Source of the DNA: Candidatus Udaeobacter sp.
Lineage (GTDB): Bacteria > Patescibacteriota > Patescibacteriia > Magasanikbacterales > GWA2-37-8
Length of the DNA: 64,000 nucleotides
Assembly: GCA_035473115.1 (NCBI GenBank)
Contig: DATION010000006.1
Location: 521-64,520, forward strand
Direction of reading: 5' to 3'
Within the stretch, counting starts at the first letter, position 1. The number at the start of each line of letters is the position of its first letter. A program made the position numbers and the translations under genes. Positions 8,893 to 61,577 of this stretch are shown piece after piece. A model generated the notes under the pieces. The model was not told where the DNA came from and made no database searches. It saw only the letters and a list, made by a program, of their open reading frames with translations.

Positions 8893-8958
8893 AGGTCCGT
8901 TTGAGCGCCTGTGGGCGCTGGAGGTGGAACCTTTGCCAAAAGAGCTGTGTTTTGAGAT

Positions 8959-9366
8959 TTAGTATACACCAATGGGCGGTAGACCGAGCAATTCAAGCAA
9001 TATGTCAGGCAGAGTATCCTTTCTGGACTCGTGACTGCATCCCGCTTTTCTCAAGGCCCTGTTTGATTCCGGCAGGATAGATACAGCGATAATTATCCCG
9101 CCGAATCCACTCTGTCGTATCTCTCGCACGAGAGGTGGGGTATTGGCTGGGCCTGAACCCAGCGTGCCGTCCATTACGATTGCTGCCCAGTCGGAATGTG
9201 CTCGGAATGTAGTTCTGGCTTCATCCAAGGTGAATGCGGAGAACAACCTTAGTTTGGCTCCTAACTCTCCGTGCCAGCCGATCTGGATATGCTTATCATC
9301 CTCAACCAAGAGGACTTTAGGAAGGTTCACTTCATCCTCAGTCAGGAGGATTTTAGACAGTGTCAT
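8959..9366 (-). CDS. Orphan single-domain response-regulator receiver (CheY-like)
   Basis: KVLLVEDD acidic pocket, a candidate phospho-Asp in AIVMDG, and conserved S and K positions downstream. There is an AGGAG SD 8 nt before the ATG. The region is visibly GC-enriched versus the flanks. Confidence 0.6.
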   Translation of the reverse strand: MTLSKILLTEDEVNLPKVLLVEDDKHIQIGWHGELGAKLRLFSAFTLDEARTTFRAHSDWAAIVMDGTLGSGPANTPPLVREIRQSGFGGIIIAVSILPESNRALRKAGCSHESRKDTLPDILLELLGLPPIGVY

Positions 9367-9467: not shown

Positions 9468-12047
9468 ATGGAAGACAAAATAATAATCAAAGGAGCCAGA
9501 GTGCACAATTTAAAAAATGTTTCTTTGGAAATTCCCAAAAATAAAATGACAGTTTTTACCGGCGTATCCGGCAGTGGCAAGTCGTCGCTGGCTTTTGATA
9601 CTATTTTTGCCGAAGGCCAGCGCCGCTACATTGAATCTTTGTCGCCATATGCGCGGCAGTTTTTGGGCCAAATGGAACGGGCCGATGTGGATGAAATTAC
9701 TGGTCTGTCTCCGGCCATTGCCATTGGCCAGAAAGCTCTCAGTCATAATCCGCGCTCGATTGTGGGTACGCTCACCGAAATTTATGATTATCTGCGCGTG
9801 CTGTATGCGCGTTTGGGTGAAGTGTATTGTCCAACTGATGGCACCAAGATCGAAAAACTTTCTCCGGAAGAAATAGTTGATATTATTATTGGCATGGGCG
9901 CGGATTTAAAAGAAAAATTTGTGACAATTTTATCGCCGGTAGTGCGCGGCCGTAAAGGCGAGTATTATCAGATGCTGTATGACTTTTTAAATGAAGGCTA
10001 TGATCAGGCGCGCGTGGACGGAAAATTAATTTCTTTGCATGATCGAATCGAACTGTCTCGGTATAAAGTTCATAACATAGATATTGTAATGGATAGAGTA
10101 ATGATTAGCGATGAAACTCGTTTGTTTGAAGCGGTTGAAAATGCTTTGGCGCATAGCAAAGGGTTGGCCTCGGTAATTTTTCGCGAAGATAAGAAAGATG
10201 AACGCGCCAGATTATTTTCCAGTAATTGGTCTTGTCCGACTGATGGTTTTTCTTTTCCCGAAATTGAACCGCGCCTGTTTTCATTTAATAGTCCGGCCGG
10301 AGCCTGTGTAGCTTGCGGCGGCTTGGGGAAAACCGATATGTTTTCCAAAGTTATCTGTCCGGATTGCCAAGGAAAAAGATTAAAGCCGGAAGCCTTATCG
10401 GTAAGAATAAAAAATAAAAATATCTATGAAGTTTGCGCTTTGACGATAGAAGAAGCCCATGAATTTTTTAAAGATTATGAAAAAAATTTAAATGAACGCC
10501 AGCATTTAATTGCTCATAATGTGGTTAAAGAAATAAATGACCGCCTAAAGTTTTTATTGGAGGTTGGTCTTGATTATATTACTTTGATTCGTGAGGCGGA
10601 AACATTATCCGGTGGGGAAGCGCAGCGCATTCGTTTAGCTTCGCAGATTGGTTCGCATCTTTCTAATACATTATATGTTTTGGATGAGCCAACCATTGGT
10701 TTGCATGAACGTGATACGGAAAGATTGGTAAAAACTTTAAAATCTTTGCGTGATGAAAATAATACGGTGATTATTGTGGAGCATGATGAACGGACAATTA
10801 AAGAATCTGATTATTTGATTGATTTGGGGCCAATGGCAGGTGAGTTGGGCGGGGAAGTTGTTTTTGCTGATGATGCGCGGCCTATAATTGCGGATGCAGA
10901 AAAAAAATTATTAACTTTAAAACGAAAAGAAGCTGTGGTATCTGCTAAAGCCGAAAAAGCAAAACCAGTTTTTGATAATGGCAGATCACTTACCCTTAAA
11001 TATCTGACTGGAGAAAATAAAATTGAAGTGCCACAAAAGCGCCGTTGGAAAGAAACAGAAGAAATTTCTATCGTTGGCGCGCGAGCCAATAATTTAAAAA
11101 ATATTAATGTAAAAATTCCGTTGCGCAAGCTGGTCTGTATTTCCGGTGTGTCGGGCGGTGGCAAATCTTCGCTTTTGTATGATGTGCTTTATGAAAATAT
11201 TGTGCGGATAAAAAGCCGTTATAAAAAATTGGAAGATGTGGCCAAAATTACCGGTACGGAATATGTAGACAAGGCGATTATCGTTGATCAATCGCCAATT
11301 GGCCGTACACCAAGGTCTAATCCGGCAACTTACACCGGTATTTTTACGCCGATTCGTGATTTTTATGCCAGTTTGGAAGAATCCAGAATGCGCGGTTATA
11401 CGCATTCTCGGTTTTCTTTTAATGTGGCTGGCGGCCGCTGCGAAGCTTGTGAAGGCGCAGGCTTTAATGTGATTGAAATGCATTTTATGCCCGAAGTGGA
11501 AGTGCCGTGTGAAGTCTGTCATGGTAAAAGATTCAGTCGTGAAACTCTGCAAGTGAAACATAAAAATAAAAATATTAGCGATGTCTTGGAAATGACGGTC
11601 AATGAAGCCGTGAAGTTTTTTGAAAATATTTATTTGATTACTGATAAATTAAAAGTGTTGCAGGAAGTTGGTCTGGGTTACTTGCGTTTGGGTCAAAGCG
11701 CCACCACGCTTTCTGGCGGCGAGGCGCAGCGTATTAAATTAGCCAGAGAACTTACTGGTCCGCTGGGCAAGAAGACTTTGTATCTTTTGGATGAGCCAAC
11801 AGTTGGTTTGCATTACCATGATATTGAAATGCTATTAAAAGTTTTGAATAAATTGGTAGATAAAGGTAATTCGATTGTGGTAATTGAGCATAATTTGCAT
11901 ATTATAAAATGCGCGGATTATGTGATTGATATGGGGCCCGAAGGTGGAGCTAAAGGCGGAACCGTAGTGGCCAAAGGCACGCCCGAAGAAGTGGCGGATA
12001 ATCCAAATTCTTATACAGGCATGTATTTAAAAGAGTATTTGGATTAA
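9468..12047 (+). CDS. uvrA: Excinuclease ABC subunit A (compact, about 859 aa)
   Basis: N-terminus [17 protein letters not shown], two ABC ATPase modules (GVSGSGKSS twice), zinc-finger cysteines and LSGGE signatures. The ORF is open from 9423, but the homologous start is Met 9468. Confidence 0.93.
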
Positions 12048-47827: not shown

Positions 47828-47912
47828 GCCCAGGTGGCGGAATTGGTAGACGCACTACCTTGAGGTGGTAGCGCCGCAAGGCGTGGAGGTTCGAGTCCTC
47901 TCTTGGGCACCA
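47828..47912 (+). tRNA. tRNA-Leu (anticodon GAG), class II with long variable arm, CCA encoded
   Basis: GCCCAGG acceptor stem, D-loop AATTGGTAGA, anticodon stem-loop CTACC-TTGAGGT-GGTAG, long variable arm, T-loop GGTTCGAGTCC, 3' CTTGGGC-A-CCA. Confidence 0.85.
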
Positions 47913-56981: not shown

Positions 56982-57416
56982 ATGAGCCAGCAAGGAAAAG
57001 AATTTTTTTTACCTTTAGAAACACCGGATGATGGCTCTGGGTTTTCTTTGTTCTCGTCTTTAAAAAATCAAGCCGGTGAACATGTGCCCGAAGGTCAGCT
57101 GGCTGTGGATGTTTCGCAGACCGAAGACGAACTTGTGGTGGTGGCGGCCATGGCTGGCACACCCGCGGAAAAAATTGAACTGCATCTCCATAATGATCTG
57201 CTTACTATTCGCGGTGAAAGAACCTCACCCGTAGAAGCGGCTGAGCATTTCTATCAGGAATGCTATTGGGGAAAATTTTCTCGAAGCATAATTTTGCCGG
57301 TAGATGTAAAAACCGAGATGGTCCAAGCACAATATAAAAATGGTGTGCTGATAATTAGACTGCCAAAAGCCAGTCAAAATAACAGCAATATCCCAATTAT
57401 GGTAATTGAAGAATAA
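56982..57416 (+). CDS. Hsp20/alpha-crystallin small heat-shock protein
   Basis: Alpha-crystallin domain with the C-terminal I-x-I-like motif (…GVLIIRLPK…). Confidence 0.85.
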   Translation: MSQQGKEFFLPLETPDDGSGFSLFSSLKNQAGEHVPEGQLAVDVSQTEDELVVVAAMAGTPAEKIELHLHNDLLTIRGERTSPVEAAEHFYQECYWGKFSRSIILPVDVKTEMVQAQYKNGVLIIRLPKASQNNSNIPIMVIEE

Positions 57417-59385
57417 TATGTCTTTGGATGAATTAAAAAGTTTAAATTTAGCAGAACCTAAAACGTATCGGAAAAGGAATTTTTTGATTGGTCTGGGAAT
57501 TTTTTTGGCAGCGCTAATTTTGGCCAACGCGGGGGCTTGGGCTTATTATAATTTTTATAAAGATAAGATTATTCCCGGAGTTTATGTTGGCCAGCATTCC
57601 TTAGAAGGCATGACTTTTATTCAAGCGAAAGATTTTATCGAAAATTTTAATAATCGTTTGGCCAAAGAAAGCTTGGGTTTTAATTTTATTGTGCCGGCAA
57701 AATATGATGAATCTGGCGTGCCAAGTTCTACGGATGGTTCTAAAACCGAAAATTTTAAACTCACCACTATATCTGCCGATGATAGTTCGGTTGAGTTGGT
57801 AAAAGTAAACAGCGAAACTTCAGCTGCTAAACTGGTGGCAATTGGCAAATCCGGCGGATTTTGGCAAAAATTATGGCAACCATTATATATCCGCTTAATT
57901 TCTCCACAGCAAGTTTCGGCCGATGTAGTTGTAGAAGATCGATTTATAAGCAATCTGCAAAATTATTTATTGCCGTTTAGCGACCAGCCTCATAATGCCA
58001 ATATTAAAATAACCGGCTTAACACCTTTGGCCTATACCATAGTACCTGAGCACGAAGGAACGATGTTTGATTATGATAGATTAAAAAATGATTTGTTAAA
58101 TAATCTGGCCGGCATGTCTCTGGCGCCAATTAAAGTTTATAATAAAAATTTTAAACCAGATGTTTTTGTTCCCGATCTTGATTCGGTAATTAAAAAATTA
58201 CCTGATATTTTAAATTACGGAGATCTATCTTTAAATTATATTGATCCGCAGACAAAAGTCAGGCGCGATTGGAGTATTGGTTCGGCTATTTATCGCAGCT
58301 GGTTTGAAGTAAGGCGTGAAGATGGCAATCCGGTTTTGGCTCTTAACCGAGAAAAAGTGGCAGCTTATCTTGATGGATTAAGGCCGTTTATTGATATGCC
58401 AACCCAAGACGCAAAATTTGTGATGGAAAATAATCGGGTAAAAGAATTCCAGGCTAGCCAAACGGGCTTAAGACTCGATGCTGATAAAACTTTTGCTGAC
58501 TTAGACACTGTTTTTCGTCAGCGAAATTTTAATCCGGCCGAAGTGTCTAAGACTGTTACCGTATCAGTTGATATTGTGAAGCCAAATGTGGCTATGGCTG
58601 ATGCTAATAATTTGGGCATAATGGATGTTATGGGAGTTGGCTACTCAACATTTAAAGACAGTCATACTAATAGAATAAAAAATATTGCTAACGCGGTAAA
58701 ACGATTAAATGGAATTCTGATTCAGCCCGGAGAAGAATTTTCGGCTAATAAATACGCCGGCCCATATATTGCCGAAGAAGGTTTTTTGCCGGAGATGGTA
58801 ATAAAAGGTGATGAAATAAAACCGGAAGTGGGCGGCGGTATGTGCCAAATTGGTACGACTTTATTTAGGATGGCGATGAATTCTGGCATGCCAATTACTG
58901 AACGCAGGAATCACTCTTTGGTAGTAGGTTATTATGCCGACCCTATAAATGGCAATCCGGGCACAGATGCTACTTTATATGAACCGAGCGTTGATTTTAA
59001 GTTTAAAAATGATACCGGTGGCTATCTGCTTTTGCAAACCAATATAGACTACGCTAAACAGCAATTAACTTTTACTTTGTGGGGAAAGAGTGATGGTCGT
59101 TCCGGTTCGTACACCCATCCGGTAGTAAATAAATGGATACCGGCCGGCGACCAAAAAGATATTGTTGTTCCGCCTAATAATGAATTAAAAGCGGGGGAGA
59201 CAAAATGCCAAGGCGCGTTCCGCGGCGCAGTTACCTCATTTACTTACACCAGATTTACTTCTTCCAGCCAAAAAATTGAACAGGTCTTTGATAGTTATTA
59301 TCGGCCATTATCAAAGATTTGTATGACAGCAGCCACTACAACTTCCGGTTTAGGGATCCCTCTGGATTTAGGTGAAGGTCAGTAA
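57406..59385 (+). CDS. VanW-domain protein with N-terminal TM anchor
   Basis: C-terminal VanW block (…GEEFSANKYAG…GGGMCQIGTTLFRMAMNSG…). The start may be Met 57418. Confidence 0.75.
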   Translation: MKNNMSLDELKSLNLAEPKTYRKRNFLIGLGIFLAALILANAGAWAYYNFYKDKIIPGVYVGQHSLEGMTFIQAKDFIENFNNRLAKESLGFNFIVPAKYDESGVPSSTDGSKTENFKLTTISADDSSVELVKVNSETSAAKLVAIGKSGGFWQKLWQPLYIRLISPQQVSADVVVEDRFISNLQNYLLPFSDQPHNANIKITGLTPLAYTIVPEHEGTMFDYDRLKNDLLNNLAGMSLAPIKVYNKNFKPDVFVPDLDSVIKKLPDILNYGDLSLNYIDPQTKVRRDWSIGSAIYRSWFEVRREDGNPVLALNREKVAAYLDGLRPFIDMPTQDAKFVMENNRVKEFQASQTGLRLDADKTFADLDTVFRQRNFNPAEVSKTVTVSVDIVKPNVAMADANNLGIMDVMGVGYSTFKDSHTNRIKNIANAVKRLNGILIQPGEEFSANKYAGPYIAEEGFLPEMVIKGDEIKPEVGGGMCQIGTTLFRMAMNSGMPITERRNHSLVVGYYADPINGNPGTDATLYEPSVDFKFKNDTGGYLLLQTNIDYAKQQLTFTLWGKSDGRSGSYTHPVVNKWIPAGDQKDIVVPPNNELKAGETKCQGAFRGAVTSFTYTRFTSSSQKIEQVFDSYYRPLSKICMTAATTTSGLGIPLDLGEGQ

Positions 59386-59418
59386 AAACAACACACCCTC
59401 CGACTTGCGTCGGAGGGT
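59383..59418 (-). terminator. Perfect 11-bp hairpin with T-run on the minus strand (terminator of the minus-strand non-coding transcript; also 3' of vanW)
   Basis: caccctccgac-ttgc-gtcggagggtg. On the minus strand it is followed by tgttgtttttac. Confidence 0.5.
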
Positions 59419-59675
59419 GGTTAATTTATGTTGAGGGAAGTAAACTTCCCTCCAAAACCGCACCCAAGAAGATGTGTTAAAGAAGAAAACGAGCCGAAGC
59501 CGGTTGTTCCCTCTAACACACCTCCATGCTTGTCGTGGATACGGGACGCTGATTACCTGTAGATAACCAACGTTCCATATCCATTTCATGCCTGAACTAT
59601 CTTTTCAGAGTTATTCTCTAAGTGTGTTTATTGCCCGATATTTATCTGACTTGATTTATCTGTTACTTTAGGCAA
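59392..59675 (-). ncRNA. Candidate approximately 280-nt non-coding transcript (unknown class) bounded by a consensus promoter and an intrinsic terminator
   Basis: Minus-strand promoter TTGACA-N17-TACAAT (59681-59709) and terminator (59383-59418) bracket 385 bp between convergent vanW and clpP. No credible ORF. Internal hairpin gagggaag-ttta-cttccctc. Confidence 0.35.
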
Positions 59676-59680
59676 CTGCG

Positions 59681-59709
59681 AATTGTATCATATTCCCATA
59701 AGTTTGTCA
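59681..59709 (-). promoter_or_regulatory. Minus-strand sigma70 promoter TTGACA-N17-TACAAT
   Basis: -35 is the reverse complement of 59704-59709 and -10 is the reverse complement of 59681-59686. Confidence 0.45.
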
Positions 59710-59763
59710 AGGGATAAGTGGAGATACCTGGTTATTTTTGGCTAAGATAAGCTAAATTTTTTA

Positions 59764-59803
59764 TATCAAAAAATCCCGCCATAAACGGGATTTTTTGTTT
59801 TTA
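59764..59803 (-). terminator. Bidirectional rho-independent terminator downstream of clpP
   Basis: atcccg-ccataaa-cgggat stem with A-run and T-run on both sides. Confidence 0.7.
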
Positions 59804-59813
59804 TTTATAAATC

Positions 59814-60416
59814 TTATTTCTTTTCAATCACTTTATCAATCAGGCCATACTTTAGCGATTCTTGCGCAGTCATGAAATTATCCCGGTCAGTATCTTTTTC
59901 TATCTGGGCTAAAGGTTTGCCCGTATGCTTGGCCATAATTTGATTAAGCCGTTCTTTGATCTTTAAAATACGTTCAGCACGGATTTTGATATCGCTGGCT
60001 TGGCCTTCCATACCGCCCATTACTTGGTGAATCATAATTTCGGAATTAGGCAAGGCAAAGCGTTTGCCTTTAGCGCCGGCTGATAAAAGAAAGGCGCCCA
60101 TGCTTGCTGCCATGCCGACACAGATAGTGCTGACATCAGGCTTGATGTGTTGCATAGTGTCGTAGATAGCCAAACCGGCTGTTACTGATCCGCCAGGGGA
60201 ATTGATATATAATTTGATATCTTTTTCCGGGTTTTGGTTTTCCAAAAATAACATTTGGGCAATAATGACATTGGCGACATTGTCGTCGACAGCTGTGCCC
60301 AAAAATATGATTCGGTCTTGGAGCAGGCGAGAGTAGATATCATAAGCACGTTCGCCATAGCTGGTTTTTTCGATGACAGTGGGAATAAGGTATTGGGAGG
60401 TGATTTTGTCTGACAT
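59814..60416 (-). CDS. clpP: ATP-dependent Clp protease proteolytic subunit
   Basis: Ser-His-Asp triad context ([10 protein letters not shown]…HQ…D). 200 aa. Confidence 0.95.
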
Positions 60417-60448
60417 ATTGAATTATAGTTTTAATTAATTTTTTAGTT

Positions 60449-60532
60449 GTCATCCCGAGTGAGGCCGTAGCCGACGAGGGATCTATGTTGTTTGAATAGA
60501 TTCCTCACCTCATGCTGAGGATTCGGAATGAC
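60449..60532. repeat. MITE-like palindromic repeat, copy 3
   Basis: gtcatcccgag … acgagggatctat … tagattcctca … ggattcggaatgac. Block-for-block match to the reverse complement of 6839-6937. Confidence 0.55.
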
Positions 60533-60548
60533 AAAACAATCGTAGCAC

Positions 60549-61577
60549 TTATTTTTCGCTTTGTAAATTGATTATTTTTTCGACTACGCTTTCAATTGTG
60601 CCGTCTGTAGTGAACCCGGCTGCTTTTTTATGTCCGCCGCCGCCCATCTTTTTGGCTAAGGCCGAAACATCAATTTCATCGCTGGTTGTTCTAAAGCTGC
60701 CTTTAATTTTACCGTCGGCTGTTTCTTTTATAAATAAAGATATTTTGGCGCCATCAAGCTTGTTTAGGAAATTGGATATTCCTTCTACTTCTTCGTCGCT
60801 TATTCCATATTGAAGCAGATCTTTAATTGTTAGGTAAGTATAAGCCATATCTGAATTTTCTTTTTTATGCAGTCTGCTTAGAATTAGTCCCCATAACTTA
60901 AGAATAGCAATAGATTTGTTCTGTACCAAAGAATGGTGAATAACTGTCCAGTTGGCTCCCAGACGAAGCAGATCGCTGGCGGCGGTGAGCGATGTGTAAG
61001 AAGTGGCCGAGTTAGAAAAATTATCTGTATCAGTGATCAGTCCCGTTAAAAGAGCCGTGGCCATGGTGCGAGTAATATAAATGTTGTTGAATTTAAAAAA
61101 ATTATAGACAACTTCGGTGGTGGAAGAAGCGTTTGGTATTACCATATTTAAGTGTCCATATTTTTCGTTGGTAGCATGATGGTCTATATTTACAAGTGTT
61201 GCCGGATGGTCTTTGATTATTTCCGCTATGCCGGCAAAACGCAGATCACCGCAATCTAGAACGGTAATCACTTCGCTTTCTAAAAATGTAGCTGGGTCAA
61301 AGCTTACTAGATGAATATTATTAAGGAAGCCGAATTTTTCCGGCACAGGGCTTAGGCAAAAATTTTTAACTTCTTTTTTTAGATTTCGTAAATACTCGGC
61401 AAAAGCCATAGCTGCCCCTAAAGTGTCGCCATCCGGATTGGGATGCGAAACCAGCGTTATTTTATTAACGCTTTGCAGGTGGTTATGAATTTGTTGAGCT
61501 GTTCTTTGCATTTTGGTTATTTTAAGGTAACGGACAATTATATATTTATTGTTCAGTTCTGTCAAGGAGTGTGCCAT
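60549..61577 (-). CDS. nrnA: Bifunctional oligoribonuclease/pAp phosphatase NrnA (DHH-DHHA1)
   Basis: DHH motifs HPNPDGD and DHH(A), DHHA1 GGGGH. The probable true start is Met 61511 (MQRTAQQ…). Confidence 0.8.
   Translation of the reverse strand: MAHSLTELNNKYIIVRYLKITKMQRTAQQIHNHLQSVNKITLVSHPNPDGDTLGAAMAFAEYLRNLKKEVKNFCLSPVPEKFGFLNNIHLVSFDPATFLESEVITVLDCGDLRFAGIAEIIKDHPATLVNIDHHATNEKYGHLNMVIPNASSTTEVVYNFFKFNNIYITRTMATALLTGLITDTDNFSNSATSYTSLTAASDLLRLGANWTVIHHSLVQNKSIAILKLWGLILSRLHKKENSDMAYTYLTIKDLLQYGISDEEVEGISNFLNKLDGAKISLFIKETADGKIKGSFRTTSDEIDVSALAKKMGGGGHKKAAGFTTDGTIESVVEKIINLQSEK

Follow-up and report, generated by a model that had tools for sequence, protein, structure and literature searches.

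The 64-kb stretch of DNA analysed here (the window) carries two convergent genes, vanW and clpP, whose stop codons are separated by 428 nt. The gap between them holds, on the minus strand, what appears to be an independently transcribed gene for a structured non-coding RNA. A sequence-only reading of the window had proposed a non-coding transcript running from promoter to terminator at this place. Conserved signals, the lack of an open reading frame (ORF), covariation, and the occurrence of the gene in both orientations among relatives all support that proposal. The features of the locus are as follows, numbered along the window.

57406-59385, plus strand: vanW, a VanW/PG_binding_4 gene by protein-family annotation.
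60416-59814, minus strand: clpP, a ClpP gene by protein-family annotation.
59797-59767: clpP terminator, directly after the clpP stop codon, found by terminator scan.
59682..59710, minus strand: sigma-70-type promoter, with -35 element TTGACA (59710-59705), a 17-nt spacer ending in TG (extended -10), and -10 element TACAAT (59687-59682).
59384..59676, minus strand: predicted primary transcript of about 290 nt, both ends placed from the promoter and terminator positions, with support from its folding z-score.
59630..59676, minus strand: 5'-terminal hairpin P1 (GUUGCC...GGGCAAU), predicted by folding, with G-C to A-U compensatory changes in its closing pairs; part of the variable 5' domain.
59545..59629, minus strand: variable, dispensable 5' domain, holding hairpin P3 (about 59576-59545) and the competitor segment UGGAUAUGG.
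59536..59544, minus strand: 5' strand of helix H1, CCGUAUCCA, pairing with 59466-59458.
59526..59535, minus strand: one-sided 10-nt bulge, CGACAAGCAU, facing a single unpaired U at 59467.
59468..59525, minus strand: H2, a long irregular helix of two helix segments, with 19 of 25 pairs showing compensatory change.
59501-59490, minus strand: apex motif GGC-UUCG-GCUCG, at the end of H2.
59458..59466, minus strand: 3' strand of H1, UGGGUGCGG, assigned by covariation.
59433..59453, minus strand: small variable hairpin, GAGGGAAG-UUUA-CUUCCCUC, predicted by folding, with an A-rich spacer after it.
59384..59419, minus strand: intrinsic terminator, an 11-bp stem with 8 G-C pairs and a GCAA loop (59419-59394), then the U-run UGUUGUUUUU (59393-59384).

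The promoter, at 59710..59682, agrees with consensus at 11 of 12 positions and ranks first among the ten promoter-like sites returned by a promoter scan of 58800-60600. The near-consensus TTGACA-N17-TACAAT and the perfect 11-bp hairpin with a T-run that the sequence-only reading had pointed out both lie within 1 nt of where it placed them, the hairpin at 59419..59394 with UGUUGUUUUU running to 59384. The pattern TTGACA-17-TAnnnT is kept in all six sequences of alignment A1 and is present upstream of most family members. Full-length homology of the transcript region is found in loci L001, L002, L003, L004 and L005. The terminator stem shows compensatory changes among relatives. It also resembles a terminator on the plus strand, behind vanW, and the U-run reaches the stop codon of vanW. 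Of 69 sequences, 53 have a recognisable intrinsic terminator, whose median end lies 150 nt past the start of the 18-mer search pattern described below.

Nothing in the transcript region looks like a protein-coding gene. The longest minus-strand ORF (59589..59368, 73 aa) reads through the terminator, as had been remarked from the sequence, and no conserved reading frame is found, since each of the six frames across the core is interrupted by stops in 36-58 of 71 sequences (at least 51%). Indels among relatives are not multiples of three. The minus-strand RNA has a minimum free energy (MFE) of -116.8 kcal/mol. Compared with dinucleotide shuffles this corresponds to z = -8.36, whereas the value for the plus strand is -5.18.

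Relatives of the element were collected in several ways. Among species-representative genomes, it is present at each of the five best vanW loci, antisense to vanW, with about 100 nt nearly invariant. An exact 18-mer from the core, TCCACGACAAGCATGGAG, which spans the bulge, matched 95 metagenome stretches. Model R1 finds one copy each in 81 of 100 loci, these being the 95 stretches plus L001-L005, and the copies represent 71 distinct sequences; in the window it finds a single copy, at 59553-59454, with 101.5 bits. The 18-mer is kept where VanW is only 30-40% identical to the VanW of the window and ClpP is 68-80% identical. A second sample was drawn through VanW protein homologues alone (n = 8). 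The RNA is present in seven of these eight loci, namely four of four of Magasanikbacteria type and three of four from a divergent query. Among the latter three, L189 belongs to Uhrbacteria by its source name, and L190 and L191 share its variant of H1. The eighth locus, without the RNA, has lost synteny with clpP. The bulge reads CGACAAGCAU in six of the seven VanW-derived loci and CUACAAGCAU in one. Its conservation is about as tight as that of rRNA.

We find no homologue adjoining vanW in 75 loci of other Patescibacteria (Microgenomates, Levybacteria, Daviesbacteria and others). A mobile-element origin was considered and set aside, there being no match in phage or plasmid collections or in viral contigs. 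The family is vertically inherited, in Magasanikbacteria, Uhrbacteria and related Patescibacteria.

The alignments identify the predicted functional core as one long hairpin, 59544-59458, broken by the 10-nt bulge, and not as the separate hairpins that had been singled out by eye. H1 contributes 9 bp, with 99% of alignment cells paired and double changes in six of the nine pairs. It covaries to CUGUAUCCA/UGGAUACAG and to CUGCGUCCA/UGGACGCAG, and in Uhrbacteria to CUGCAGGCA/UGCCUGCAG, so that UCCA/UGGR becomes GGCA/UGCC. The side opposite the bulge is a single U in all 40 sequences of alignment A3 and all 51 of alignment A6. H2 spans about 30 bp. At its base are the pairs G-C, G.U, A-U and G-C, with CUUC as the conserved 3' strand; its middle is poorly paired, and its apex, of the form GG(Y)-loop-(R)CUCG, holds G.U and G-C pairs that are nearly invariant. 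The 3' strand CUUCUUG lies outside the search pattern and is conserved all the same. What is fixed in sequence is the bulge, the pairs beside it (a G.U wobble among them) and, some 25 bp off, the apex, while the helices between covary freely.

The distal part of H2 is plastic in places. In L135, L161 and L139 the helix is cut to a small hairpin, leaving cores of 81 nt and 64 nt from which the conserved apex is lost, and a member at L188:5185-5344 has a 62-nt insertion in the apex loop.

The pairing itself is well supported. Covariation with orthologous intergenic regions had been named beforehand as a check, and the region proves to be conserved in relatives, with 25 of 34 pairs changed on both sides among the 51 sequences of A6. 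In that alignment 90.9% of cells are paired, compared with at most 46% when partners are slid, and none of 500 shuffles reaches the observed level; A6 includes the VanW-derived unbiased loci but was fitted to the model and so leans toward it. Alignment A3, a plain MAFFT alignment of 40 sequences, has changes on both sides in 20 of 34 pairs and 90% of cells paired, compared with 40-47% for slid partners, again with 0 of 500 shuffles reaching this. H1 was also chosen independently by RNAalifold from 16 full-length Magasanikbacteria-type sequences. The G.U pairs G30.U90, G55.U66 and U13.G98 would be A-C mismatches on the opposite strand, which fixes the strand of the RNA. A first single-sequence fold, in which GGAUAUGG paired with CCCGUAUCC as the main structure ('hairpin A'), was abandoned when more sequences were added and the same strand was found to pair with the downstream GGGUGCGG; it is retained as a possible alternative state.

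This evidence bears directly on whether the locus holds an RNA gene at all, or instead a conserved DNA element (a recombination or binding site between convergent genes) or the gene for a small protein. The position between convergent genes would suit a DNA element, as would the partly palindromic 18-mer (TCCA...TGGA). Neither reading accounts for compensatory changes that keep about 34 RNA pairs over about 90 nt, for G.U pairs that are strand-specific, or for a conserved promoter and terminator, and a protein gene is contradicted further by stops in all six frames in at least half of the sequences. We consider either possibility scarcely credible.

Outside the core, the family varies greatly in length. 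Members have 34 to 295 nt between the -10 element and the core, with a 5' domain of 0 to about 290 nt, so that this domain is taken as variable and dispensable. Most relatives that have it begin in a hairpin. The smallest forms, L122, L152 and L160, measure 157-177 nt including the terminator and are without the 5' domain; in these, the 5' and 3' ends lengthen H1 into a closing stem of 21 bp. On the 3' side of the core a variable small hairpin is followed by an A-rich spacer and then the terminator. In the window this small hairpin is the internal perfect one already seen by eye, at 59453-59433. Its sequence differs among relatives, while the hairpin form is kept.

The 5' domain of the window RNA contains a segment, UGGAUAUGG (59583-59575), that can pair with the H1 5' strand CCGUAUCCA and so excludes H1, giving two mutually exclusive folds. 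An upstream competitor of this kind (UGGRUA-type, 6-12 nt), able to displace the H1 3' strand, occurs in about 20 of 68 members, and in 13 of them the match exceeds nearly all shuffles. The RNA might on this account be a sensor or switch, its bulge and helices responsive to a ligand or to temperature, in which the UGGAUAUGG-type segment and the H1 3' strand compete for one partner and so set two states. Pairing of the competitor segments with the H1 5' strand would take in its CCA end, the MFE fold of the window RNA alone prefers the alternative hairpin, and stress genes (hsp20, clpP, sodA) are among the neighbours. Yet a competitor segment is missing from the smallest members and from several others, the consensus fold of 16 related sequences picks H1, some of the signal is due to lineages in which the H1-bulge module has been duplicated internally, and there is no downstream gene to regulate. 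We judge a switch to be quite unlikely.

Such a duplication is visible as a second, smaller module, ...CUGUAUCC-ACGAC-hairpin-GGAAUACAG, which lies about 100-110 nt upstream of the core in L088, L114, L137 and L140, and 51 nt downstream of it in L139. From its sequence, the second module looks like an internal tandem duplication, and ACGAC, the part of the bulge common to both copies, may be the key element. A multi-site protein sponge was considered and rejected, as the second CCACGAC module is found in just 5 of 71 members.

The RNA gene is always placed between convergent vanW and clpP, as seen in about 80 related Patescibacteria loci. In about 40 loci, as in the window, its direction is that of clpP, and in about 22 that of vanW. 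It has thus been inverted in place in about one third of the loci (L084, L088, L090, L121, L125, L133, L143, L154, L163, L169 and others), while vanW and clpP stay convergent. The flanking terminator hairpins, which score on both strands, may have mediated the inversion. Because the gene keeps its own promoter and terminator while flipping in place, we take it to be an independent, trans-acting gene. By the same arrangement the predicted RNA is not a leader, a 3' untranslated region or an antisense regulator of either neighbour. A cis-regulatory leader or riboswitch was rejected specifically, as the terminator faces the 3' end of a convergent gene and the orientation to both neighbours flips between lineages.

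The RNA does not correspond to any known family in our searches. At gathering score, Rfam 15 finds one tRNA-Leu only in the whole window, and ARAGORN likewise reports that tRNA-Leu and no transfer-messenger RNA (tmRNA). The Rfam covariance-model search proposed by the sequence-only reading was run over 59300-59900 and returned no known family; at E<=10 the only matches are weak ones to models of enterobacterial small RNAs (sRNAs) and leaders, all of which owe their scores to the two terminators. No family recurs consistently among 13 homologous loci at E<=5. The failure to recognise tmRNA, signal recognition particle (SRP) RNA or RNase P RNA by eye is thus borne out. Searches of full-text papers turned up neither a description of the RNA or its sequence nor a report of a lineage-specific structured sRNA in Patescibacteria. 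By sequence and predicted structure, the RNA founds a previously undescribed family, of a general kind, the lineage-specific orphan structured RNA, that is familiar. The raiA-motif RNA, OLE RNA, and the Bacteroidales-1 and Chloroflexi-1 type motifs are orphan structured RNAs known from the Breaker and Weinberg surveys. These share with the present family a conserved sequence, a covarying structure, restriction to a single lineage, an own promoter and terminator, and discovery from intergenic conservation; they show no homology to it in sequence or structure, and the host here is Patescibacteria.

Several smaller resemblances were examined. Likeness to tmRNA was rejected, with no tRNA-like domain, no ARAGORN or Rfam match and no conserved (tag) reading frame. 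A Shine-Dalgarno mimic, suggested by GGAGGUG, was also rejected: in its place half of the members read GGAGAU, and the sequence in Uhrbacteria is GGGG or GGGA. Because GGAGGUG is replaced in these ways, anti-Shine-Dalgarno pairing is not the conserved feature. Likenesses to boxA, the K-turn and the tetraloop-receptor, checked only by eye on the alignments, do not appear to be conserved across the family.

The bacterial SRP RNA (4.5S; RF00169, RF01854) is similar in being a long irregular hairpin built from 5' and 3' parts, with an asymmetric internal loop, a conserved apex, a periphery of variable size, housekeeping-level conservation and a single copy. It differs in having a GNRA tetraloop and the symmetric and asymmetric loops of domain IV, whereas here a UUCG-type loop caps the apex GG(Y)-loop-(R)CUCG and the invariant loop lies about 25 bp from it; neither the small nor the large bacterial SRP model matches. 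Bacterial Y RNA, the partner of Rsr/Ro, also has an end-to-end stem, a conserved bulge, which in Y RNA binds protein, and a variable distal module. The bulge here has another sequence and geometry, however, the RNA lacks a tRNA-like module and an Rfam match, and no rsr gene is close by.

That the RNA might be a highly diverged housekeeping RNA (RNase P RNA, SRP RNA or tmRNA) is very improbable, and this reading is already largely refuted. It would fit a single-copy, very conserved RNA found in seven of eight VanW-sampled loci. The stretch ACAACCGGCUU resembles the 3' strand of P4 in RNase P RNA, and UCCACGACA resembles J2/4 of E. coli M1 RNA, both of which count toward a diverged RNase P RNA. 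The P4 pseudoknot of RNase P RNA is formed by the conserved regions GAGGAAAGUCC and ACAGAAnCnGGCUUA. Here ACAACCGGCUU has no conserved 5' partner, and the core is unbranched and without a pseudoknot partner. The P4-like stretch, noted by the sequence-only reading as 'aacaaccggcttcgg', turns out to be the apex of the covarying hairpin and not a P4 strand, and its sequence varies within the family (e.g. CAGCAGGCUAC, GUGCCGGUUCC). Magasanikbacteria and Uhrbacteria belong to the GTDB class ABY1. In the circular genomes of the Candidate Phyla Radiation that they assembled, five of class ABY1 among them, Lui et al. recovered RNase P RNA with RF00010 (PMC8172020). Some RNase P RNAs of Patescibacteria escape default Infernal thresholds, which speaks for the diverged reading, and Lui et al. 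used thresholds down to 5 bits, below what the searches here list (PMC8172020). No match to RF00010, RF00011, SRP RNA or tmRNA was obtained at E<=10 at the locus or at E<=5 in the 13 loci, and ARAGORN gives no tmRNA. Moreover, forms of 157 nt exist, H2 is much shorter in certain members (cores of 81 nt and 64 nt), and there is neither a GNRA-capped domain IV motif nor a tRNA-like domain.

Housekeeping RNAs were also sought near the RNA gene in 23 related loci, and only rRNA, tRNA and introns were found. In several relatives about 8 kb separate the RNA gene from a 16S rRNA gene (L130:8492-10052, L092:8358-9855, L118:8462-10208, L093, L102). In L118 a group I intron (8943-9234) interrupts the 16S gene, and a group II intron fragment follows (10409-10479).

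Another reading is a functional analogue of 6S or Ms1 RNA. Such an RNA would present a rod that binds RNA polymerase, with the bulge and the weak pairs beside it (G.U, A-U) opening a promoter-like bubble and possibly templating a short product RNA that unwinds H1. As in 6S RNA, covariation supports a rod in which a closing stem, about 21 bp of H1 in the smallest forms, and an apical stem enclose an unpaired centre. Like 6S and its actinobacterial counterpart Ms1, the gene stands alone under a strong promoter of housekeeping type, its smallest forms, at 157-177 nt, are of similar size, and the RNA probably binds a protein. The pairs beside the bulge are weak in Uhrbacteria. Ms1 provides a precedent for lineage-specific substitutes of 6S (PMC9130861). 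No Rfam 6S match occurs in any examined sequence of these organisms, and we found no report of 6S RNA for Patescibacteria. The same searches count the other way as well, for RF00013 has no match in the window at gathering score, at E<=10 over 59300-59900, or at E<=5 in the 13 loci. The defining feature of 6S RNAs is a two-sided central bubble whose 3' strand carries a '-10-like' recognition element (PMC8876501). Here, in contrast, the bubble is one-sided, with 10 nt opposite 1 nt, and that one is a single U in all 51 sequences. Furthermore, 6S is poorly conserved in sequence, whereas the bulge here is invariant. Taken as a direct analogue of 6S or Ms1, the reading seems to us rather unlikely.

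The remaining alternative is a base-pairing sRNA, in which the bulge CGACAAGCAU would be the seed for AUGCUUGUCG-like sites, whether in at least one mRNA or in some other RNA, and would control translation or decay. The gene is a stand-alone unit from promoter to terminator, the most conserved unpaired segment is 10 nt, a typical seed length, and the complement of the bulge starts with AUG. A search for that complement covered the 64-kb window and 16S rRNA, a small part of each genome. In the window the complementary sites are the gene itself and one site with 1 mismatch in an ORF, two found where 3.5 are expected by chance, and complementarity of the bulge to 16S rRNA in three RNA-bearing genomes is no better than that of shuffled queries. 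A seed also leaves unexplained the fixed flanks on both strands and the distant fixed apex, with covarying helices between. We rate seed pairing as unlikely.

We propose that the locus encodes an independently transcribed structured non-coding RNA of a new family, which would act in trans as the RNA of a ribonucleoprotein (RNP) and dock a protein at the bulge. To this explanation as a whole we assign a probability of roughly 0.55. Because the flanks of the bulge and the apex are fixed while the intervening helices covary, recognition by a protein or through tertiary contacts is favoured over simple pairing; by analogy, the pattern is typical of RNAs read by such contacts, among them SRP, 6S, Y and RNase P RNA, and not of simple seed pairing. 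The RNA would be an abundant, stable component of its particle. The bulge, its invariant flanking pairs and the apex about 25 bp away would together make the docking site for a conserved cellular protein or complex, and the RNA would scaffold or sequester that partner as 6S, Ms1, SRP or Y RNAs do theirs. The task of the variable 5' domain, 3' hairpin and terminator would be to support stability and folding, and in many members the 5' competitor segment may gate formation of the docking site by competing with H1.

Several points weigh against this proposal. The ends, the abundance and the stability of the transcript are predictions. The metagenome stretches were retrieved through an 18-mer that includes the bulge, which leaves the seven VanW-derived loci as the only unbiased sample of that segment. 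The conserved unpaired 10-mer might just as well be the seed of an RNA-RNA interaction. Single copy is established for the 64-kb window and the examined loci only. Finally, the gene neighbourhood links no candidate partner protein to the RNA; the neighbours vanW, clpP, hsp20, the DHH/DHHA1 protein and smc look like plain conserved synteny.

A bolder form of the RNP proposal is possible, though we would wager against it. The RNA would then be the subunit of an unrecognised RNP, universal in the branch of Magasanikbacteria and Uhrbacteria, either a structurally new substitute for 6S that sequesters RNA polymerase or a new housekeeping particle. The CGACAAGCAU bulge would be its protein-recognition element, and the competing 5' segment would gate access to it in many lineages.

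Further out, hsp20, sodA and fpg lie to one side, and the DHH/DHHA1 gene and smc to the other. The genes hsp20 (56982-57416) and vanW share 11 nt at the TTG start of vanW (57406-57416), and the close pairing of the two genes is kept in most related loci. Because this overlap or tight pairing is conserved so widely, co-transcription of hsp20 and vanW is suggested. Only about 55 nt lie between clpP and the RNA promoter, with the hairpin at 59767-59797 (AAAAAATCCCG...CGGGATTTTTT) in between. This hairpin has an A-run on one flank and a T-run on the other and is reported on the plus strand by the scan; by its sequence it could terminate on both strands. The sole RNA gene recognised in the window by Rfam and ARAGORN is tRNA-Leu(GAG), at 47828-47912.

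The organism is a Patescibacterium close to Candidatus Magasanikbacteria. The NCBI source name for the VanW protein of the window, P0001 (57406-59385), is 'Candidatus Udaeobacter sp.' (Verrucomicrobiota), while all close relatives are Patescibacteria, and many related genome records carry the title 'uncultured Gammaproteobacteria bacterium'. Such names are probably binning or labelling errors in public metagenome-assembled genomes.

Much of bacterial diversity belongs to the Patescibacteria, a group with tiny genomes and almost no cultured members. A sequence so strictly kept in a tiny genome is unlikely to be dispensable. Because the bulge is identical in six of seven unselected loci whose VanW proteins are less than 40% identical, the RNA, which also has a consensus promoter, ranks among the most constrained elements of these genomes. 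The family also offers handles for experiment, in a covariance model for annotation, a bulge to mutate, and an RNA bait for the partner. If that partner is RNA polymerase, or the translation or secretion machinery, then a core process would be organised differently in these reduced cells.

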